Below, piece by piece: positions 1 to 8,613 of a stretch of 64,000 bases of DNA. Location: assembly GCF_055900595.2 (NCBI RefSeq), contig NZ_CM148325.1. One strand, 5' to 3'. The stretch's first letter is position 1; every line of letters starts with the position of its first letter. The position numbers and the translations under genes were made by a program. The notes beneath the pieces are model-generated. The model was not told the DNA's origin. It did not search any database and saw only the letters and a list, made by a program, of their open reading frames with translations.

Positions 1-149
1 CAAATTTAAAAGAAATTGCGGCAAAGTCAATACTTACAGATACAACGGTTTCAATTCCGATAACTGCCAGTTACTACGTCTACGATACAAATAAAATTAA
101 ATCTGGCGCACTGGAGGCAACCGCATTAATCAACGTGAAATACGACTAA
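1..149 (+). CDS. 3' end of a fimbrial-type protein gene (partial, start lies before the window); C-terminus ...TALINVKYD
   Basis: Open frame from window start to TAA at 147-149; position convergent with rcnB matches the yehA end of the yehDCBA fimbrial operon by synteny (inference). Confidence 0.45.
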   Translation, partial: NLKEIAAKSILTDTTVSIPITASYYVYDTNKIKSGALEATALINVKYD

Positions 150-205
150 TAACAAGCAAGACGAGCAAGTGGCTAATAATAAAAAATAACAAGGTGTCTG
201 CATTT

Positions 206-232
206 CCCCCTCATGATGAGGGGGCTTTTTTT
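206..232 (+). terminator. Rho-independent terminator between convergent fimbrial gene and rcnB
   Basis: Perfect palindrome ccccctcatgatgaggggg (206-224) followed by T-run 226-232. Confidence 0.6.
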
Positions 233-569
233 AGCGATGATAAAAAATCTCACCATCGTAGGCTTTAATGATTTTACCGTCGGTGTCGCTGATCAACACA
301 TACGCGCCACCCATATAGGTCCAGTGCGTCCCGGCATCAGGCGCGGGCAGGTTACGTAACTGCCACTGCTTAATGTTGTACTCATCGGTGCGGTACATCT
401 CTGGGACGGTATCGCCTGGTTTGAAATGCTTAAAGTCAGCAATGAAACTGCTTAACTCATACTTAGAAATTCCCGAGGTATTGGTCGAACCCGCGGTGGC
501 TGGTGCGGCCCAGGCGGCACTGGTAACCAGCAAAAGCGCACCCAGCAACATCTTATTTTTAATGGTCAT
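231..569 (-). CDS. rcnB: RcnB, periplasmic protein modulating Ni/Co efflux (112 aa)
   Basis: Internal ATG of ORF 231..749; product MTIKNKMLLGALLLVTSAAWA... has a signal peptide and matches recalled RcnB (YohN); sits immediately downstream of rcnA. Confidence 0.85.
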   Translation of the reverse strand: MTIKNKMLLGALLLVTSAAWAAPATAGSTNTSGISKYELSSFIADFKHFKPGDTVPEMYRTDEYNIKQWQLRNLPAPDAGTHWTYMGGAYVLISDTDGKIIKAYDGEIFYHR

Positions 570-773
570 ATACTCTCCACTTTGGGGATCTGTAATATCA
601 GTCGCATATCTTTCCTGCCATACAATATAACTGACAAGCGATATTTTGTTAGTGATCCCATGATTTCGTAAAAAGTGTAAATGAAAGGATGCCCTAAAAG
701 CATCCTTAGCGAGCAGAGAGCCAGCGGAAATAGCTGATTTAAGAATCATCCTGGGCTGAAGATAACATGCAGC

Positions 774-1595
774 CTATCGCATAATGCCCATAAAGCCATG
801 CACGCCCATATACACCCCAACTAAGCCAATCAACAGACTGGAAAAATAGGGGGCACGTTTAGCGAGAGTGTTAAATCCGCTCCAGCGTTTTGCGACCTGC
901 TGAACGCTGATTGCTGCGCCAACGCCTACGGTGACTAGCGTTAACGCCAGGCCAATGCTGAAACTGACGACCAGTGTTGCGCCTAGTGTCAGGGCTTTCA
1001 ACTGAATACAAATCAACAGCACGGTAATTGCTGCCGGGCAGGGGATCAGTCCACCTGTTAACCCAAACAATAAAATTTGCCAGTTGGTCACTTCTCTGCC
1101 ATTGAAGCGTCGTTTGATGTCATTGGCATGGGCTCGTGCATGAGCATCCTGATACTCCCCATGTTCGTGATGGTGATGATGTCCATGGTCGTGGTGATCT
1201 TCGTGATCGTGATGATACTCATGATCATGCCCGTGCATATTCTCCAGCCAGTTACGTTCGCCGCGCCAGGTACGCCAGAACATCCAGAACGCGGTGCCAA
1301 TAATGATCACCGCGGAAATCAACTGGAGCCACGGTTCTGCAGATTGAGCAGTAAAACGTTTGCTGATCACCATCCCGCCAAAGGCAATCAACCAGACCAC
1401 CGCGGTATGCGAAATGGTTGCTGCCAGTCCGAGCATCACCGCCTGTTTAATGGTGCCTTTGATGGCGATGATAAACGCCGCCATCATCGTTTTTGAGTGC
1501 CCTGGTTCCAGGCCATGAAGCGCACCAAGTAAGATGGCGCTGGGAATGAAGAACCAGGCGTTTCCTTGCTGAAGAAGAGTGGTAAATTCAGTCAT
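774..1595 (-). CDS. rcnA: RcnA nickel/cobalt efflux permease with His-rich loop
   Basis: 273-aa membrane protein with loop HGHDHEYHHDHEDHHDHGHHHHHEHG; divergent from rcnR. Confidence 0.93.
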   Translation of the reverse strand: MTEFTTLLQQGNAWFFIPSAILLGALHGLEPGHSKTMMAAFIIAIKGTIKQAVMLGLAATISHTAVVWLIAFGGMVISKRFTAQSAEPWLQLISAVIIIGTAFWMFWRTWRGERNWLENMHGHDHEYHHDHEDHHDHGHHHHHEHGEYQDAHARAHANDIKRRFNGREVTNWQILLFGLTGGLIPCPAAITVLLICIQLKALTLGATLVVSFSIGLALTLVTVGVGAAISVQQVAKRWSGFNTLAKRAPYFSSLLIGLVGVYMGVHGFMGIMR

Positions 1596-1632
1596 GATAA
1601 TAATTCTTAGTATTAATTCGACAATCTGATTC

Positions 1633-1667
1633 TACTCCCCCCCAGTACATGATACTACCCCCCAGTA
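1633..1667. promoter_or_regulatory. RcnR operator: two TACT-C6/7-AGTA sites in the rcnR-rcnA divergent promoter region
   Basis: tactcccccccagta at 1633-1647 and tactaccccccagta at 1653-1667; matches the known RcnR recognition pattern TACT-G6-N-AGTA read on the other strand. Confidence 0.8.
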
Positions 1668-1715
1668 GATTAATAGTGCTATGATTTTTCATGTTCTTGT
1701 TAACCAGGTGTTGCC

Positions 1716-1988
1716 ATGTCTCATACAATCCGTGATAAACAGAAACTGAAAGCGCGTGCCAGTAAGATTCAGGGCCAGGTCGTGGCGCTCAAGAAAATGC
1801 TCGACGAGCCGCACGAATGCGCAGCTGTTCTACAACAGATTGCTGCTATCCGTGGCGCGGTAAACGGCCTGATGCGCGAAGTGATTAAGGGGCATCTGAC
1901 GGAACACATCGTTCACCAGGGGGATGAGCTAAAACGTGAAGAAGATCTGGATGTCGTTCTGAAGGTGCTGGATTCTTATATCAAATGA
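1716..1988 (+). CDS. rcnR: RcnR, Ni/Co-responsive transcriptional repressor (CsoR/RcnR family, 90 aa)
   Basis: 90-aa [32 protein letters not shown]...; divergent from rcnA. Confidence 0.93.
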
Positions 1989-2058
1989 AAGTGCCTAATA
2001 TGGCCGTAGTTGAGGCAATAAATAGAGGGACAAGTGACGTTAAGCTGAATTAGAGTAA

Positions 2059-2082
2059 ATGGCGTGAGGACACACGCCATTC
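2059..2082. terminator. Hairpin (9-bp perfect stem aatggcgtg/cacgccatt) between rcnR and the island ORFs; possible bidirectional terminator
   Basis: Inverted repeat read directly from sequence; flanking T/A-rich tracts. Confidence 0.4.
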
Positions 2083-2097
2083 GAGGATATAGTTTGA

Positions 2098-2412
2098 TTA
2101 ATTTTCGAAAAATTGCTTCACAGCCCAGCCACCATGACCACCTGGAGTTATGAATGAAACAAAACCTTTGTCATCGACGCTCTGGATTTCTACTGTCATT
2201 GATTCATCTAACACGCGACATTTATTGGATGTAATGAGACTCAGCATAGCCTGTTGGTCATTGTCCTGAATGTAACTGATCATCTCGTAAAAGTCAGTTA
2301 ACTTTTTACAGTTAAATGTACCTTCTTTAAGTGTTGCGCTGTCTCCGTGACTTAGTGCGAATGCATTTGGCATCATTGCCACAAAGATGACGGTAACGAG
2401 TAGTTTTTTCAT
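2098..2412 (-). CDS. Hypothetical small secreted protein (104 aa, N-terminal signal peptide, 2 Cys in mature part)
   Basis: ORF MKKLLVTVIFVAMMPNAFALSHG...; AT-rich context; no recognised family. Confidence 0.6.
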   Translation of the reverse strand: MKKLLVTVIFVAMMPNAFALSHGDSATLKEGTFNCKKLTDFYEMISYIQDNDQQAMLSLITSNKCRVLDESMTVEIQSVDDKGFVSFITPGGHGGWAVKQFFEN

Positions 2413-2421
2413 TGTAGCCTC

Positions 2422-2769
2422 TTATAATTCAGAACATTCACTGATGTTGTAAGTGCCTTTTCTACCATCATCGTTTACGAGATGTAGCACGAAGATGATG
2501 GGATTGGCATCAATGAAAGATACAGAGACGTTCCCGCTTTCGGTGCTATACATCTTTGCAATCTGTTTTTCACCAATATATGAAAGATCCCAACTCACTC
2601 CGTTCAAGCTAAAATGCATCTGTTTGCCGTCAATATCGATGGAGGATTGTGCCGTAACGGTTTTCCCATTGCTGCCAATTTGACCCTGCTGAAGAGCATC
2701 ACATTTATAGGAGCTTGCATAAGTAAATAGAGGTAGTAGCAGAAGTGCAGCAAAAATTTTACTCTTCAT
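2422..2769 (-). CDS. Hypothetical small secreted protein (115 aa, signal peptide, 2 Cys)
   Basis: ORF MKSKIFAALLLLPLFTYASSYKC...; 10 bp upstream of the 104-aa ORF, likely co-transcribed. Confidence 0.6.
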   Translation of the reverse strand: MKSKIFAALLLLPLFTYASSYKCDALQQGQIGSNGKTVTAQSSIDIDGKQMHFSLNGVSWDLSYIGEKQIAKMYSTESGNVSVSFIDANPIIFVLHLVNDDGRKGTYNISECSEL

Positions 2770-3137
2770 ATTTTCCCTTTGCTTGGATTTGAGTTACCTA
2801 TTTTGGGGTAGTCATTATAAAACTATTAATTAGTAAAATGAACAAGTTTTCATTTGTTTAGTAATGGTATTGTTTAGGTTTGAAATTATTACGTACTTTC
2901 ATAGCAATAGGTTGGATAAACAGCAGTTCAGGGAACAAGTTGCACTATCTACATACTTTCCCGCTTTCCATTGTATGTTAGGTAATAGATAGCCTTTGCC
3001 CGTAAGACTAAAAATATTAGAAATGACTCATTCGAATACCTTCTATTCACCTTAATATAGGTTTGATTATTGTAATCGTTTAATGTGTCTTATGGATTTT
3101 TTCCTACTTTTCATTTGCATAATATAGGGGGCACAGC

Positions 3138-3257
3138 ATGCTCTTGAAATTAATTATTAAGATATTTAAATTTTACAGCACACAACTACTTTTCGTTGTC
3201 TTATGTGTTGAACGTACTTCGAGTATAGGTAGGGTTGTATATATATTGCGTGGGTAG
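3138..3257 (+). CDS. Candidate small hydrophobic peptide (39 aa, MLLKLIIKIFKFYSTQLLFVVLCVERTSSIGRVVYILRG)
   Basis: ATG preceded by aggggg about 8 nt upstream; very short, so coding status is uncertain. Confidence 0.2.
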   Translation: MLLKLIIKIFKFYSTQLLFVVLCVERTSSIGRVVYILRG

Positions 3258-3354
3258 AGTTAGAATAGAGGAGGCATCATTTATAGAATATTCAAGAACG
3301 TTAACCTGTGATCAATAAATAAAAATATCAAATGGTGTTCAAACATATTTTTCT

Positions 3355-3686
3355 ATGAAAAATCCAGCCATCTATGATGAATTTTTAGATCCATTTTAAT
3401 TAAAGTATGATTATGAACCAATATTTAGCCAAGAATGGTGGTATAGCGCGTATCCAATGACACCGGAAAACGCATCTATGAAGTCCTTGTTTATCTCTAT
3501 AAGAGGAAATCAACACTAATAAAATATAGTGATGTAACACATCGAGCAGGTTGCTCTGATGCTGGTCTTCAACTGTGGCTTAAACAGCTATCAAACTTCG
3601 GTGTTATTGAGATGAAAGAATTATCTTTCTCAACTTTCAATCTCAAAAAGCTAGAGGAAATAGACCTTAATTATTCCACTCTCTAA
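3355..3686 (+). pseudogene. Possible degraded gene: three consecutive +1-shifted open frames (MKNPAIYDEFLDPF / MIMNQYLAKNGGIARIQ / ...KRIYEVLVYLYKRKSTLIKYSDVTHRAGCSDAGLQLWLKQLSNFGVIEMKELSFSTFNLKKLEEIDLNYSTL)
   Basis: An ~80-codon stop-free frame in ~30% GC DNA lacking an ATG near its 5' end, preceded by two short ATG-initiated frames. Confidence 0.25.
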
Positions 3687-3822
3687 ACTTATCTCTTTAT
3701 TTAAAGTAAAAATGAAAATATTATGGTATCAGCTACGTGGTGGTAACTGGTGTTTATGATCATAGGTACACATATACAGGGAACCCTGGAAAACAAAAGT
3801 AATATATTGATGATTTCGTTTG

Positions 3823-4062
3823 TTATAACTTCGTGGTATCAAGTCCGGCGGCTTTGAGTCGCTCGGTAAGATTTCTCATTTTGCTGAACTCTGTACCAAA
3901 GCTGGCTTTAAGTCCTACACCTTCGCAAAACTCTTTTGCCGTGACGTTTTTAAGATGGTCAGCGTATTTGATCATCTGGAGGTGCATTTCCATCGTTTGG
4001 CTATTTCGTGGTGCGCTGCTAATGGCTTGCTTAATGTTCTCGTAGATCTGGGTTTCTGTCAT
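3823..4062 (-). CDS. Hypothetical protein (79 aa), family not recognised
   Basis: ORF MTETQIYENIKQAISSAPRNSQTMEMHLQMIKYADHLKNVTAKEF...; in AT-rich island. Confidence 0.5.
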   Translation of the reverse strand: MTETQIYENIKQAISSAPRNSQTMEMHLQMIKYADHLKNVTAKEFCEGVGLKASFGTEFSKMRNLTERLKAAGLDTTKL

Positions 4063-4282
4063 TTTTTATCTCACCTATCAAATTTAGATAAATAATATAA
4101 ATTAGATAAATAAGATAATCAATAGTTTTTACCATATGAATAATGGATGTGGATTGTTTCTTTTTCATTTCTGATATGGAGTACAAAATGGGGTCACAAT
4201 GAAGAAGCGATGAATGGAGGCGAGCTTGCATCTGCAAGCCTCTTCCCCTAATCTGGCACAAAATATAGAGATTCAACCAAAC

Positions 4283-4400
4283 GACTCGGGGTGCCCTTCT
4301 GCGTGAAGGCTGAGAAATACCCGTATCACCTGATCTGGATAATGCCAGCGTAGGGAAGTCACGGACCACCAGGTCATTGCTTCTTCACGTTATGGCAGGA
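4283..4400 (+). promoter_or_regulatory. TPP (THI-box) riboswitch in the thiM 5' leader
   Basis: Sequence ggggtgcccttctgcgtgaaggctgagaaatacccgtatcacctgatctggataatgccagcgtagggaa matches the classic thiM thiamine-pyrophosphate aptamer; directly upstream of thiM start. Confidence 0.92.
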
Positions 4401-4407
4401 GCAAACT

Positions 4408-5196
4408 ATGCAAGTCGACCTGCTGAGTTCCGCGCAATCTGCGCACGCGTTACACCTTTTTCACCAACATTCCCCTCTTGTGCATTGCATGACCAATGAT
4501 GTGGTGCAAACCTTTACTGCCAATACCTTGCTGGCGCTCGGTGCATCGCCAGCGATGGTTATCGAAACCGAAGAAGCCAGTCAGTTTGCGGCTATCGCCA
4601 GTGCCTTGCTAATTAACGTCGGCACGCTGACGCAGCCACGCGCACAGGCGATGCGTGCTGCCGTTGAACAGGCAACACACTCTCAAACCCCCTGGACGCT
4701 TGATCCGGTCGCGGTTGGCGCACTCGATTATCGTCGCCGTTTTTGTCATGAACTTTTATCTTTTAAACCGGCAGCGATACGTGGTAATGCTTCGGAAATC
4801 ATGGCATTAGCTGGCGTTGCTAATGGTGGACGGGGAGTGGACACCACTGACGCCGCAGCTAATGCGATACCCGCTGCACAAACACTGGCACGGGAAACTG
4901 GCGCAATCGTCGTGGTCACAGGCGAGGTGGATTATGTTACCGATGGTCGTCGCACCGTTGGCATTCACGGCGGCAATCCGTTAATGACCAAAGTGGTAGG
5001 AACTGGCTGTGCATTATCGGCAGTTGTCGCTGCCTGTTGTGCATTACCTGGCGATATGCTGGAAAATATCGCATCTGCCTGTCACTGGATGAAACAAGCC
5101 GGAGAACGCGCCGTCGCCAGAAGTGAAGGGCCTGGCAGTTTTGTTCCCCATTTTCTTGATGCGCTCTGGCAATTGACGCAGGAGGTGCAGGCGTGA
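4408..5196 (+). CDS. thiM: Hydroxyethylthiazole kinase
   Basis: 262-aa ORF; downstream of TPP riboswitch; overlaps thiD start. Confidence 0.95.
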
Positions 5197-5993
5197 AACG
5201 AATTAACGCTCTGACAATTGCAGGCACTGATCCCAGTGGTGGCGCAGGAATTCAGGCAGATCTCAAAACGTTCTCGGCACTTGGCGCTTATGGTTGCTCA
5301 GTGATTACTGCACTGGTGGCGCAAAATACCCGTGGCGTACAGTCGGTGTATCGCATTGAGCCTGATTTTGTCGCCGCCCAGCTCGATTCGGTGTTCAGCG
5401 ATGTGCGAATCGATACCACTAAAATCGGTATGTTGGCGGAAACTGATATTGTTGAAGCGGTGGCAGAACGGTTGCAACGTTATCAGATCCAAAACGTGGT
5501 GCTCGACACCGTTATGCTGGCAAAAAGCGGCGACCCGCTGCTTTCACCTTCGGCGGTTGCTACGCTGCGCAGTCGATTATTGCCACAGGTTTCATTAATA
5601 ACGCCAAACTTGCCCGAAGCAGCCGCCTTGCTCGACGCGCCACACGCGCGCAACGAACAGGAAATGCTGGAACAAGGGCGATCGCTGTTGGCGATGGGCT
5701 GTGGCGCAGTGCTAATGAAAGGTGGTCATCTGGATGATGAGCAAAGCCCGGACTGGCTGTTTACCCGCGAGGGTGAACAACGGTTTACCGCACCGCGCAT
5801 TATGACCCAAAACACCCACGGCACTGGTTGTACGCTCTCTGCGGCGTTGGCTGCACTGCGCCCGCGCCATACAAACTGGGCTGACACCGTACAGGAGGCA
5901 AAAAGCTGGCTTTCATCGGCATTAGCCCAGGCCGACACGCTGGAAGTTGGTCACGGTATTGGTCCGGTTCACCACTTCCACGCCTGGTGGTGA
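5193..5993 (+). CDS. thiD: Hydroxymethylpyrimidine/phosphomethylpyrimidine kinase (GTG start overlapping thiM stop)
   Basis: 266-aa [29 protein letters not shown]... Confidence 0.95.
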
Positions 5994-6057
5994 GCACCGT
6001 ACTATAGCTGCTTTGGTTATTGTCAGTCTTTGGCGCTGACATTCAGGGATGAAACCA

Positions 6058-6876
6058 ATGCAGCTGAGCATCACCAGTCGAAAAAAATTCACCGCTTTAT
6101 TATGCGCTCTTGGGCTAATTTCCATCGTTGCAATTTATCCGCGTCAGACGGTGAATTTTTTCTACTCGACAGCAATTCAGATTAAAGACTACATCCACTT
6201 CTACGGTTATCGTCCGGTCAAATCTTTTGCTATTCGCATTCCTGCCAGTTACACCATTCATGGTATTGATGTTTCACGCTGGCAGGAGCGAATCGACTGG
6301 CAGCGGGTGGCAAAAATGCGCGATAACGGTATTCGCTTGCAATTTGCCTTTATCAAGGCGACGGAGGGCGAAAAGCTGGTGGACCCCTATTTTTCGCGTA
6401 ACTGGCAACTAAGCCGCGAAAATGGCCTGCTGCGCGGGGCGTATCATTAATTCTCCCCGTCGGTATCCGCTTCAGTTCAGGCGCGATTATTTCTGCAAAC
6501 GGTGGATTTCTCACAAGGCGATTTCCCTGCCGTGCTGGACGTAGAAGAACGGGGAAAATTATCGGCAAAAGAATTACGCAAGCGGGTAAGTCAGTGGCTA
6601 AAAATGGTCGAAAAACGCACGGGAAAAAAGCCGATTATTTACTCAGGAGCCGTTTTTTATCACACGAATCTGGCGGGCTATTTCAATGAATATCCGTGGT
6701 GGGTGGCTCACTACTATCAACGTCGTCCGGACAATGACGGAATGGCCTGGCGCTTCTGGCAGCATTCCGACCGTGGACAGGTAGATGGCATTAATGGTCC
6801 GGTGGATTTTAATGTGTTTAATGGCACGGTGGAGGAGTTGCAGGCATTCGTTGATGGGATTAAAGAAACGCCTTAA
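6058..6876 (+). pseudogene. yegX: yegX (GH25 lysozyme-like) interrupted by an in-frame TAA at 6448-6450
   Basis: ORFs 6049..6450 and 6502..6876 are in the same frame (distance 453 = 151 codons); combined length about 272 aa matches recalled intact YegX. Confidence 0.7.
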
Positions 6877-6927
6877 ATAAGAAGCAGTGATATACTCCCA
6901 CCAGACTCCCTGGCAGGAAAAAGACAA

Positions 6928-7674
6928 ATGGAACAAGCGCATACCCAGCTGATTGCCCAACTGAACGAACGTATTTTAGCGGCGGATAACACGCCGCTTT
7001 ATATTAAGTTTGCCGAAACGGTGAAAAATGCCGTGCGCAGCGGGGTGCTGGAACATGGCAATATTTTACCCGGCGAGCGCGATTTAAGTCAGTTAACCGG
7101 CGTTTCGCGTATTACGGTGCGCAAGGCGATGCAGGCGCTGGAAGAAGAGGGCGTGGTGACACGTTCGCGCGGCTACGGCACGCAGATTAATAACATCTTT
7201 GAATACTCGTTAAAAGAAGCGCGAGGATTTTCTCAGCAGGTGGTGTTGCGCGGGAAAAAGCCCGATACGCTATGGGTTAACAAGCGAGTGGTTAAATGCC
7301 CTGAAGAGGTGGCGCAGCAATTGGCGGTCGAAGCGGGTAGTGATGTCTTTTTGCTTAAGCGTATTCGCTATGTTGATGAAGAAGCGGTCTCTATTGAGGA
7401 GTCGTGGGTTCCGGCGCATTTAATTCATGATGTTGATGCCATCGGAATCTCTCTTTATGACTACTTCCGCAGTCAGCATATTTTTCCAAAGCGTACCCGT
7501 TCCCGCGTTAGCGCCCGGATGCCGGATGCCGAGTTTCAGTCACATATTCAATTAGATAGTAAAATACCGGTGCTGGTGATCAAGCAAGTGGCGCTTGACC
7601 AACAGCAACGGCCTATTGAGTACAGCATCAGCCACTGTCGCAGTGATCTATACGTTTTTGTGTGTGAGGAGTAG
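6928..7674 (+). CDS. yegW: GntR/HutC-family transcriptional regulator
   Basis: 248-aa ORF with N-terminal wHTH region (LPGERDLSQLTGVSRITVRKAMQAL) and UTRA-like C-terminus. Confidence 0.88.
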   Translation: MEQAHTQLIAQLNERILAADNTPLYIKFAETVKNAVRSGVLEHGNILPGERDLSQLTGVSRITVRKAMQALEEEGVVTRSRGYGTQINNIFEYSLKEARGFSQQVVLRGKKPDTLWVNKRVVKCPEEVAQQLAVEAGSDVFLLKRIRYVDEEAVSIEESWVPAHLIHDVDAIGISLYDYFRSQHIFPKRTRSRVSARMPDAEFQSHIQLDSKIPVLVIKQVALDQQQRPIEYSISHCRSDLYVFVCEE

Positions 7675-8613
7675 TTCCTCGCGGGTTGGCGCGCAATCAC
7701 CGCCGCGATGCCCGACAACCCACGACGCCACTGCATTGCCCAGCAATACGGCATCCGCCAGTGGCAAACCAGAGGCCAGTCCAGCTAATACGCCACCTGC
7801 ATGACTGTCGCCCGCCCCAATGGTGTCTACAACTTGCGTTGGAAATGCCGGGATGCAGCCAGAAGCGTTATTGCTGAAATACCATGCGCCTTCTTTATCC
7901 AGACGAACGATCAACGGCGCGGCAAATTTCTCCTGCCATTGCTTGCCAAGTGTTGTTATCTCTGCTGATAAAGCAAAACGTTCGGCGGCAATCTCACCCT
8001 CCTGACGATTGAGTGACACTAAAGGTCGACAGGCCATGATTCGCGCCAGTAATGCATCCGGGATATCGCCAATACGTGGGCCAAAATCGATGAACGGCGT
8101 CACGTCTTGCAGACTCTCCAGCCATTCCACTAACAATTCACCGCAGGGCGAGGCCAGTTGATAACCGGAAAAATAGAGCAGGCTGCCAGGGGCAACGGTT
8201 AATCGCGCCAACCATTCGCGATTCCACTGATTTTCAACACCACTGAACGACATAAACGTGCGTTCACCATCAGGCTCAACCAGCGCCAGACACCAGCCGT
8301 TATCGCCTTCGGCGTTATCGATGAGGCTGATTAATCCTTCTTTCGCCATCCGGTTACGAATAATTTCCGCCCACACACCCTGGCCGAGCGGCAGGGCATT
8401 ACCCGCTTCGATACCGAGGCGCTTTAACGCCACGGCAATATTCAGTGCACAGCCGCCAACGTTAACGCTCTGCTGTTTCAGTTCGATATCGCACCCGCGC
8501 CAGGGCAGGGCATAAGCGTCGGCGATCACATCAATGACTGCCGCGCCAATCACCATAACCGGCTGACGCGTGGTTAATTCAGGCAGCAGCGTGTGTAATC
8601 GAGCGCCGCTCAT
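7648..8613 (-). CDS. yegV: PfkB/ribokinase-family sugar or nucleoside kinase
   Basis: 321-aa ORF with GAGDSHAGG motif; 3' end overlaps yegW 3' end by 27 bp. Confidence 0.88.
   Translation of the reverse strand: MSGARLHTLLPELTTRQPVMVIGAAVIDVIADAYALPWRGCDIELKQQSVNVGGCALNIAVALKRLGIEAGNALPLGQGVWAEIIRNRMAKEGLISLIDNAEGDNGWCLALVEPDGERTFMSFSGVENQWNREWLARLTVAPGSLLYFSGYQLASPCGELLVEWLESLQDVTPFIDFGPRIGDIPDALLARIMACRPLVSLNRQEGEIAAERFALSAEITTLGKQWQEKFAAPLIVRLDKEGAWYFSNNASGCIPAFPTQVVDTIGAGDSHAGGVLAGLASGLPLADAVLLGNAVASWVVGHRGGDCAPTREELLLTHKNV

Follow-up and report, generated by a model that had tools for sequence, protein, structure and literature searches.

A probable remnant of tandem integrative elements at the thiM riboswitch aptamer, between rcnR and thiM of Escherichia coli

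The closest described counterparts of the locus reported here are the islands at tRNA and tmRNA genes, the elements that use ffs, a recently reported integration site (PMC12540744), and those of the dusA-specific integrases (PMC4482086), by which a target gene has its 5' end rebuilt. Two further reports touch the same region or its genes. In supplementary data of Hochhauser et al. 2023 (PMC10121019), "rcnR-thiM" appears as a rare defence location, with RM_type_IV in strain 789 and the mobile-element type "None" in that row; a riboswitch is not mentioned in the main text of that paper. RptR was described as the repressor of a type I restriction-modification (RM) island with embedded DarTG2 in enteropathogenic E. 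coli (EPEC) (Zhang et al., Nucleic Acids Research 2025, PMC12255303). Here, we analyze the rcnR-thiM interval in a stretch of 64,000 nucleotides (NCBI RefSeq assembly GCF_055900595.2, contig NZ_CM148325.1), which is called the window in its whole length. With regard to origin and anatomy, window 1987 to 4273 is very probably the immobilized remnant of one, more likely two, tandem site-specific integrative elements with the aptamer of the thiM thiamine pyrophosphate (TPP) riboswitch as chromosomal attachment site. Loci compared with the window carry L numbers, and its features are listed in Table 1.

From position 1 to 7,700, the window contains rcnB and rcnA (both minus strand), rcnR (plus strand, 1716 to 1988), an interval of low GC content, thiM (4408 to 5196), thiD, yegX, and yegW. 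In an alignment with a K-12-type locus (L003), homology ended at 1986, inside the rcnR stop codon, and restarted at 4274, where the TPP aptamer region begins. The foreign segment between these points comprises 2,287 bp and replaces 90 bp of K-12-type strains; RcnR retains an in-frame stop, with AAATGAAAG in the window in place of the K-12 AAATAATTT. A previous interpretation of this DNA made without database searches, referred to below as the sequence-only reading, had delimited an island at 1989 to 4407. That island is real, but the range given for it includes the native riboswitch and the thiM leader. Likewise, a GC content of roughly 30% had been estimated, and the measured value is 36.2%, compared to 50.7% for the whole window; the two genes for exported proteins have 40%, the gene for a 79-amino-acid (79-aa) protein has 45%, and the pseudogene and intergenic DNA has 32%. 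The supposition that rcnR and thiM lie much closer together in K-12 was correct, as the interval measures 222 bp in K-12-type strains.

We next consider intact relatives of the island, which are 8 to 10 kb long. These are flanked on both sides by a direct repeat of ~82 bp of the thiM TPP aptamer, and have a tyrosine integrase gene beside attL; the stretch from this integrase to a small serine recombinase holds cargo that varies and is often anti-phage. The order in E. coli 025542-1 (L008) is rcnR, a TPP copy, the gene for a 434-aa tyrosine integrase, ~7 kb of genes, the 79-aa gene, a second TPP copy, and thiM, and its 79-aa gene is 99% identical to that of the window. A Klebsiella pneumoniae element at thiM spans 10.4 kb with a TPP copy at either end; read from thiM, it consists of attR, a gene for a 486-aa helicase-like protein, the 115-aa and 104-aa genes, the serine recombinase, a TIR-STAND gene (PADLOC PDC-S60, E 1e-97), a 191-aa gene, the integrase, and attL. 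Because the 115-aa and 104-aa genes have the same order and orientation relative to thiM in Klebsiella as in the window, they are assignable to this element family. Alignment of attB, attL, attR, and the window showed that the att core of ~82 bp, CAACCAAACGACTCGGGG...GCCAGCGTAGGG, is the aptamer itself. Window 4274 to 4355 and L008 24350 to 24431, which is the attL copy, are 100% identical, and the right junction of the window is exactly the attR of the intact 025542-1 and Klebsiella elements. On the left side, attL of the intact relatives retains the K-12 spacer. Furthermore, the attR arms of L008 and of the Klebsiella element (L009) contain two to three copies of the motif GGGGTACA, the attL arm of L009 contains two, the attL arm of L008 has the variant AAGGTACA, and the window has one variant copy, GGAGTACA; an 11-bp deletion is present in this repeat region in O157. 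These repeats may be arm-type integrase-binding sites.

To place the island in the species, genome counts were taken over 5,426 complete E. coli genomes. The short 90-bp K-12 junction, which is the empty attB, was present in 5,011 of them (92%). Island carriers, defined as genomes with at least 80% of the island, numbered 339 and were overwhelmingly O157:H7 and O55:H7, with few others; the right-hand part alone (the 79-aa gene and its neighbors) was found in ~240 additional genomes. Thus, the frequency of the short junction, the number of carriers, and the identity of the right junction with attR support the horizontal acquisition that the sequence-only reading had proposed. That reading had regarded presence and annotation of the same genes in K-12 and all E. 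coli as decisive against it; the three are annotated in O157:H7 Sakai, as ECs_2910 (104 aa), ECs_2909 (115 aa), and ECs_2908 (79 aa), and none of them is in K-12.

The link between integrase and aptamer extends beyond E. coli. Scanning one genome per species identified integrase relatives of 63 to 83% identity in Lelliottia, Enterobacter, Citrobacter, Erwinia, Silvania, Atlantibacter, Rahnella, Cedecea, Pluralibacter, Klebsiella, Pantoea, Winslowiella, Mangrovibacter, Franconibacter, and others, with at least 12 genera of Enterobacterales overall. The aptamer core was located 85 to 165 bp upstream of the integrase start in 26 of the ~27 relatives with at least 63% identity. Within E. coli, the 025542-type integrase is full-length in 123 genomes, stands beside a riboswitch annotation among the matches listed, and is carried by strain 789; the aptamer core shows ~278 copies in surplus over the number of genomes, across 5,424 core-bearing genomes. 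These comparisons lend good support to the view that the thiM TPP aptamer is the dedicated attB of a tyrosine-integrase clade across Enterobacterales. In marine Gammaproteobacteria, the RNase P RNA gene is followed immediately on its 3' side by more distant integrase relatives (28 to 36% identity) at 12 loci (L040 to L048, L050, L051, and L053), and the wider clade appears to be specialized in structured-RNA targets.

In attL, the aptamer is complete and the integrase gene begins 67 to 85 nt downstream. As the integrase gene sits behind a complete aptamer in attL and in the circular attP form, its synthesis could respond to TPP. A GGCCGAAATTCGGCC hairpin lies between the attL aptamer and the integrase start (L008 24449 to 24514) and is found in most of the aligned leaders of L017 to L035. 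A pairing of CTCTTTTTG...CAAAAAGGG, nearly invariant in the attL leaders of L008 and L017 to L035, would cover the ribosome-binding site of the integrase; as a conserved regulatory structure this pairing was uninterpretable, as it shows no covariation and its 3' half overlaps the GGTACA arm repeat. In Mangrovibacter phragmitis (L037 1300 to 1345), the CTCTTCCTCTAATCTGGCAC sequence upstream of the attL aptamer is an element-type right arm and not host sequence, which implies another element to the left and hence a probable tandem array in a second genus.

Within the island, decayed genes lie between the surviving ones. The sequence-only reading had suspected a frameshifted gene remnant; remnants do exist, and there are three instead of one. 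The integrase pseudogene matches residues 402 to 432 of the intact element's integrase with 55% identity (tblastn, E 2.7e-6), and the similarity runs across the stop codon (YLHTFPLSIVC*VIDSLCP versus YLHTFPLNSVCYVIDGLCWA). The replication-initiator remnant is 40% identical to the product of L005 4467 to 5138; this protein and its L008 homologue match PHROG replication-initiation families and Pfam HTH_36. In the pseudogene of the 81-aa gene, amino acid identity to L008 31961 to 32206 and to L005 is 78 to 82%, and stops replace the first ~15 codons.

Table 1. Features of the rcnR-thiM interval (window positions)
Feature	Position	Strand	Basis or remark
Left junction DNA, no source matched	1987..2053	no strand	rcnR stop codon contains the breakpoint
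Terminator-like hairpin 3' of the 104-aa gene	2062..2075	-	Pattern scan; between the convergent rcnR and 104-aa genes
Gene for 104-aa predicted Sec-exported protein (ECs_2910, WP_000735648.1, RefSeq "outer membrane protein")	2098..2412	-	
Gene for 115-aa predicted Sec-exported protein (ECs_2909)	2422..2769	-	9 bp upstream of the 104-aa gene
Tyrosine integrase pseudogene, last ~31 codons with in-frame stop	2907..3002	+	tblastn with the integrase of an intact element
Phage-type replication-initiator (O-like/DnaD-like) pseudogene, C-terminal 45 codons	3262..3396	+	blastx
5'-truncated pseudogene of an 81-aa element gene (WP_000617145-like)	3456..3683	+	Homology and translation
rptR homologue (ECs_2908), 79-aa HTH_73 transcriptional repressor	3823..4062	-	Pfam and PDB match
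rptR promoter and putative operator array	4084..4122	-	Promoter scan, repeat search
Degenerate GGGGTACA repeat copies, candidate arm-type integrase sites	4178..4198	+	Motif comparison with intact elements
Element right arm, in place of native thiM upstream DNA	4214..4273	+	Conserved in window, 025542-1 attR, and BL21
attR core, 82-bp thiM TPP aptamer stretch duplicated at attL of intact elements	4274..4355	+	att alignment
thiM TPP riboswitch, native and complete, outside the foreign DNA	4277..4373	+	Rfam RF00059

We propose the following course of events. The tyrosine integrase would recombine within the ~82-bp aptamer core, leaving the element flanked by two aptamer copies; the right arm of the element would replace the DNA upstream of the thiM-proximal aptamer, and thiMD would keep a complete riboswitch. 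In this strain and in O55:H7 and O157:H7, deletions would have taken attL, the native 90-bp spacer, the integrase(s), cargo, and the replication module. From window 2054 on, there is homology to the Klebsiella element. An older Klebsiella-like element may have contributed the operon of the 104-aa and 115-aa genes; a younger, 025542-like element may have contributed the integrase remnant, the replication remnants, and rptR. The deletions would then have removed the DNA between the two elements, as well as that from the rcnR stop codon to just past the 104-aa gene. Two tandem elements would be the simplest history of the window.

An array of this kind is present in E. coli GMF054 (L016 13299 to 30271), in which the rcnR-thiM interval holds the O157-type remnant island first. 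The GMF054 island encodes identical 104-aa and 79-aa proteins, and further elements start right after ...GCCAGCGTAG of its attR core. The second element has a 450-aa integrase and a cytosine methyltransferase, and thereafter follow IS3-disrupted integrase fragments, an HNH gene, a 115-aa-like pseudogene, a serine recombinase, and a second rptR. As judged from this gene order, GMF054 shows that accretion at the island's attR happens and that attR is still used. A different arrangement was seen in E. coli BL21(RP) (L007 1 to 5522), where the thiM-side element, with an rptR homologue, a DUF6998 gene, and a replication-like helix-turn-helix gene, abuts gadX-gadW and not rcnR. This junction suggests that a large rearrangement broke within the element or that the assembly is faulty here.

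Several observations weigh against the derivation of the island from such elements. The window holds a single TPP core by Rfam and no attL, and the integrase persists only as the ~31-codon remnant; without a second aptamer copy or an intact integrase, the island cannot excise, and its origin as an element rests on comparison with other genomes. Moreover, the integrase remnant is located to the right of the 104-aa and 115-aa genes, whereas single intact elements have the integrase to the left of them, which calls for a two-element or rearrangement history with GMF054 as the sole analogy. Finally, window 1987 to 2053 had no match in a short-word search against all element sequences fetched for comparison. 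The left boundary is not a clean att junction, and the island and the 90-bp K-12 spacer exclude each other, indicating replacement rather than simple insertion. Both observations would fit an alternative in which E. coli had the island ancestrally and K-12 and most other lineages have lost it by deletion. Nonetheless, ancestral DNA does not agree with the short junction in 92% of the genomes, the GC content of the island relative to the window (36% versus 51%), a right end that is attR with an element-type arm, an integrase pseudogene within the island, the K-12 spacer kept next to attL in intact relatives, or the same gene pair in an integrase-bearing thiM element of Klebsiella. On this comparative evidence, we regard the ancestral origin as extremely improbable and as effectively refuted by the att structure, and retain the remnant of integrative elements as the explanation of the island.

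The consequence for thiM concerns its upstream DNA. The riboswitch scores 71.2 bits against a gathering threshold of 54.3 and covers model positions 1 to 105; it was the only match with Rfam at E ≤ 0.1, with no further RNA family in the island. Since the aptamer is no longer preceded by the native 90 bp, thiMD would be transcribed from a start in the right arm at 4214 to 4273. A weak promoter candidate in this arm consists of TTGCAT (4226 to 4231), 17 bp, and TAATCT (4249 to 4254); that it agrees with the consensus at 6 of 12 positions and is absent from the promoter scan output speaks against it. In O55:H7, O157:H7, and other carriers, thiMD would thus be read from foreign upstream DNA and not from the native promoter region, which could alter the regulation of thiamine salvage.

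Next to the right arm lies the 79-aa gene, whose product had been left as a protein of unrecognized family and was identified by profile search as an HTH_73/RptR repressor. It matches Pfam HTH_73 (PF24718; E 7.2e-31) with residues 2 to 71 of 79 over model positions 1 to 70 of 71, and PDB entry 9R2Z (RptR; E 2.1e-32) with 54 of 77 residues identical (70%). In RptR, E58, K61, and S60 of alpha-4 bind DNA, and E25, L69, A72, and L74 serve dimerization (PMC12255303); all of these are at the expected positions in the translated 79-aa open reading frame (ORF). The binding sites of RptR are TAGCTA, TATCTA, TAGATA, or TATATA in 9-bp direct repeats that overlap its own promoter (PMC12255303). In the window, TTTATCTAA repeats at 4084 to 4092 and 4102 to 4110 flank a −10 box, TATATT, and a −35 box, TTGATT, starts at 4122; no other copies of TTTATCTAA are found in the 64 kb. 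On the gene strand the order is ATTATCTTA-TTTATCTAA-TTTATATTA-TTTATCTAA, 21 nt, and ATG, with the repeats 22 to 48 bp upstream of ATG, a position that agrees with the arrangement in PMC12255303. The promoter-like site at 4122 to 4094 was the sole one that the pattern scan found on that strand, and the repeat array is kept in five homologous loci. Most likely, the RptR homologue binds the two TATCTA repeats around its own −10 box and represses itself.

The window gene thus shares with EPEC RptR the HTH_73 domain, 70% identity, the key residues, and repeats with the allowed TATCTA at its own promoter. It differs in that its proximal sites are TATCTA and not TAGCTA, and in its location, as it is placed at the very attR end of an integrative element and faces away from the thiM leader. 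A type I RM operon is headed by rptR in 54 of 117 published homologues (PMC12255303), and in EPEC an RM/DarTG operon follows the gene. In the window, by contrast, no intact same-strand ORF follows before the 115-aa gene ~1 kb away, and only opposite-strand pseudogenes lie between. The parallel is weakened by this lack of adjacent RM or other defense genes, which about half of the published homologues have. With no defense operon after the gene, the homologue is probably an orphan autoregulator in this strain. On the 261-kb plasmid pLR-06-1 (L006 5006 to 6551), an rptR homologue directly follows a tyrosine recombinase gene and has a BREX system as its neighbor; RptR-family genes thus travel with integrases outside the thiM site as well.

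The remaining intact genes encode the exported pair. As the sequence-only reading had stated, ORFs of 104, 115, and 79 aa are present, the first two with signal peptides and two cysteines each (35/65 and 23/112), and all three coincide with RefSeq gene models. Direct reading of the sequence revealed classic Sec signal peptides, MKKLLVTVIFVAMMPNAFA followed by LS and MKSKIFAALLLLPLFTYA followed by SS, in the 104-aa and 115-aa proteins, neither with a lipobox. Because of the 9-bp spacing, the two genes probably form an operon; a further copy of the pair has the same spacing and encodes proteins that are 70% and 49% identical. The three surviving ORFs are under strong purifying selection across elements and species, with ratios of nonsynonymous to synonymous substitution rates (dN/dS) of 0.03 to 0.07 (104-aa gene, 0.064 to 0.066; 115-aa gene, 0.037; 79-aa gene, 0.026 to 0.032), values for which synonymous sites are near saturation in some pairs. 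A comparison of the 104-aa and 115-aa proteins rejected the idea that they are paralogues of each other.

The 104-aa protein was modeled as an SH3/Tudor-like small barrel with a two-helix insert and ~85 mature residues (predicted local distance difference test [pLDDT] score of 88), and the 115-aa protein was modeled as a soluble 8-stranded beta-barrel (pLDDT of 79). Cys35 and Cys65 are invariant across the 104-aa family, which has 11 representatives among 1.84 billion proteins; a 1,340-aa match in the representative search (P0044) looks spurious, being a repeat protein, and was ignored. Cys23 and Cys112 of the 115-aa protein are likewise invariant and lie at opposite ends of the chain. Since they sit at the two ends of the barrel, a Cys23-Cys112 disulfide is possible in the model. 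Searches of NCBIfam and PADLOC returned nothing meaningful for the three ORFs, and full-length matches in PHROGs were limited to the function-unknown families 33226, 35183, and 30666. In Pfam, the 115-aa protein had no match at E ≤ 10, MliC included, and the 104-aa protein had only a marginal one to DUF4369 (E 0.04); sequence-profile searches of PDB with both family alignments gave nothing significant. A fold search with the 104-aa model retrieved only generic SH3/Tudor/KOW barrels and uncharacterized proteins of the AlphaFold Database, and as these fold matches are generic, no function can be inferred from them. The RefSeq name "outer membrane protein" is not supported for this SH3-like barrel with two helices, which has no lipobox and no transmembrane barrel.

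What the pair does can be argued from its fold, its gene context, and its conservation. We tentatively favor, as a possibility well short of an even chance, periplasmic binding or inhibitor proteins carried as "moron" cargo, which would protect the envelope when lytic enzymes come in, for instance a phage tail lysozyme or the muramidase of a competitor or of the host; both proteins would probably be disulfide-bonded. What speaks against it is that the resemblance of the 115-aa model to PliC/MliC is no stronger than that to generic 8-stranded barrels, that the protein does not match Pfam MliC, and that its family profile matched no PliC/MliC chain in PDB. Relative to the known PliC, MliC, ACP, and PhiA inhibitors, the 115-aa protein has no sequence-level match, and Cap15, de novo designs, and outer-membrane-protein domains score equally high. 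Alternatively, the pair could serve the element itself, through envelope exclusion of related elements or helper phages or through transfer, which we consider somewhat less likely. It would account for the association of the 104-aa family with the serine-recombinase backbone and not with the variable cargo: the gene adjoins the small serine recombinase in elements with three different integrase/cargo sets and in a homologue 28% identical, and a paralogue of the 115-aa gene lies near the recombinase in 025542-1. Where such elements occupy other sites, the 104-aa gene stands beside an Eco29kI restriction-modification system; the contigs of distant homologues are too short for gene context, except for one with an adjacent serine recombinase. 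However, no known exclusion family was matched, and the pair is still under purifying selection, in the O157 lineage and across species, although recombinase, integrase, and replication genes have decayed. Such persistent selection in a decayed element argues for a host benefit independent of mobility.

The sequence-only reading had suggested an effector/immunity or inhibitor pair, for which we found no direct evidence. An antagonism module, with a periplasm-acting effector and its immunity protein or with orphan immunity proteins on a mobile element, is distinctly unlikely. Neither model has a catalytic or toxin-like fold, and neither a toxin domain nor an enzymatic one was revealed by Pfam, NCBIfam, PADLOC, and fold searches. 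An effector of type VI secretion or contact-dependent inhibition would not usually have a Sec signal peptide, as both proteins do, and genes of a secretion system are absent from the neighborhood of the pair in the window and from the fetched Klebsiella flanks. Moreover, the 104-aa gene is present without the 115-aa gene in L012 to L014, and the pair is hence not obligate. Equally improbable in our estimate is the joint proposition that integrase synthesis, and with it excision and integration, is TPP-responsive at attL and attP and that the 115-aa and 104-aa proteins form a new periplasmic anti-lysin or anti-phage module.

Two further ORFs and two RNA matches were noted. The 39-aa hydrophobic ORF at 3138 to 3257 (plus strand), once a candidate peptide gene, was rejected, as the fetched elements contain no homologue of it, its place between two pseudogenes is decayed DNA, and nothing speaks in its favor; a second 39-aa ORF, at 2150 to 2269 (plus strand), is antisense within the 104-aa gene. 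In 025542-1, matches to the OrzO-P antitoxin RNA between yehL and yehK (L008 4370 to 4445 and 4980 to 5053; 100 and 89 bits) are unrelated to the island.

Altogether, three "hypothetical" genes of O157:H7 (ECs2908 to ECs2910) and ~1 kb of unannotated DNA become a defined dead element. The rule that mobile elements target structured RNAs would extend from RNA genes to cis-regulatory RNAs, and thiM-aptamer elements shuttle anti-phage cargo and build tandem arrays. The aptamer offers a compact, conserved attB for genome engineering, and the exported families, which are tiny and mostly confined to mobile elements, are candidates for new envelope-level defense or exclusion functions. The island sequence has been public since the O157 genomes, and RptR was described in 2025; an integration system of a riboswitch aptamer is not described in the searchable literature, where a full-text search of incomplete coverage, and hence absence of evidence only, found no report of such an aptamer as an attachment site.

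In relation to the defense hotspots of Hochhauser et al. (PMC10121019), rcnR-thiM is not among the numbered ones, and intact thiM relatives carry TIR-STAND (PDC-S60). Unlike defense islands and these relatives, the window copy has no recognizable defense cargo. The thiM elements resemble tRNA/tmRNA islands, ffs elements (PMC12540744), and those of dusA-specific integrases (PMC4482086) in having a tyrosine integrase next to attL and a long direct repeat made of structured and conserved host sequence, in restoring the interrupted target, and in forming tandem accretions and one-sided remnants. In those systems, however, the target is a stand-alone RNA gene or a coding sequence, whereas the thiM elements target part of a 5' leader, the aptamer with which a cis-regulatory riboswitch binds its ligand. 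What the thiM elements must supply is the promoter side and not the 3' end.

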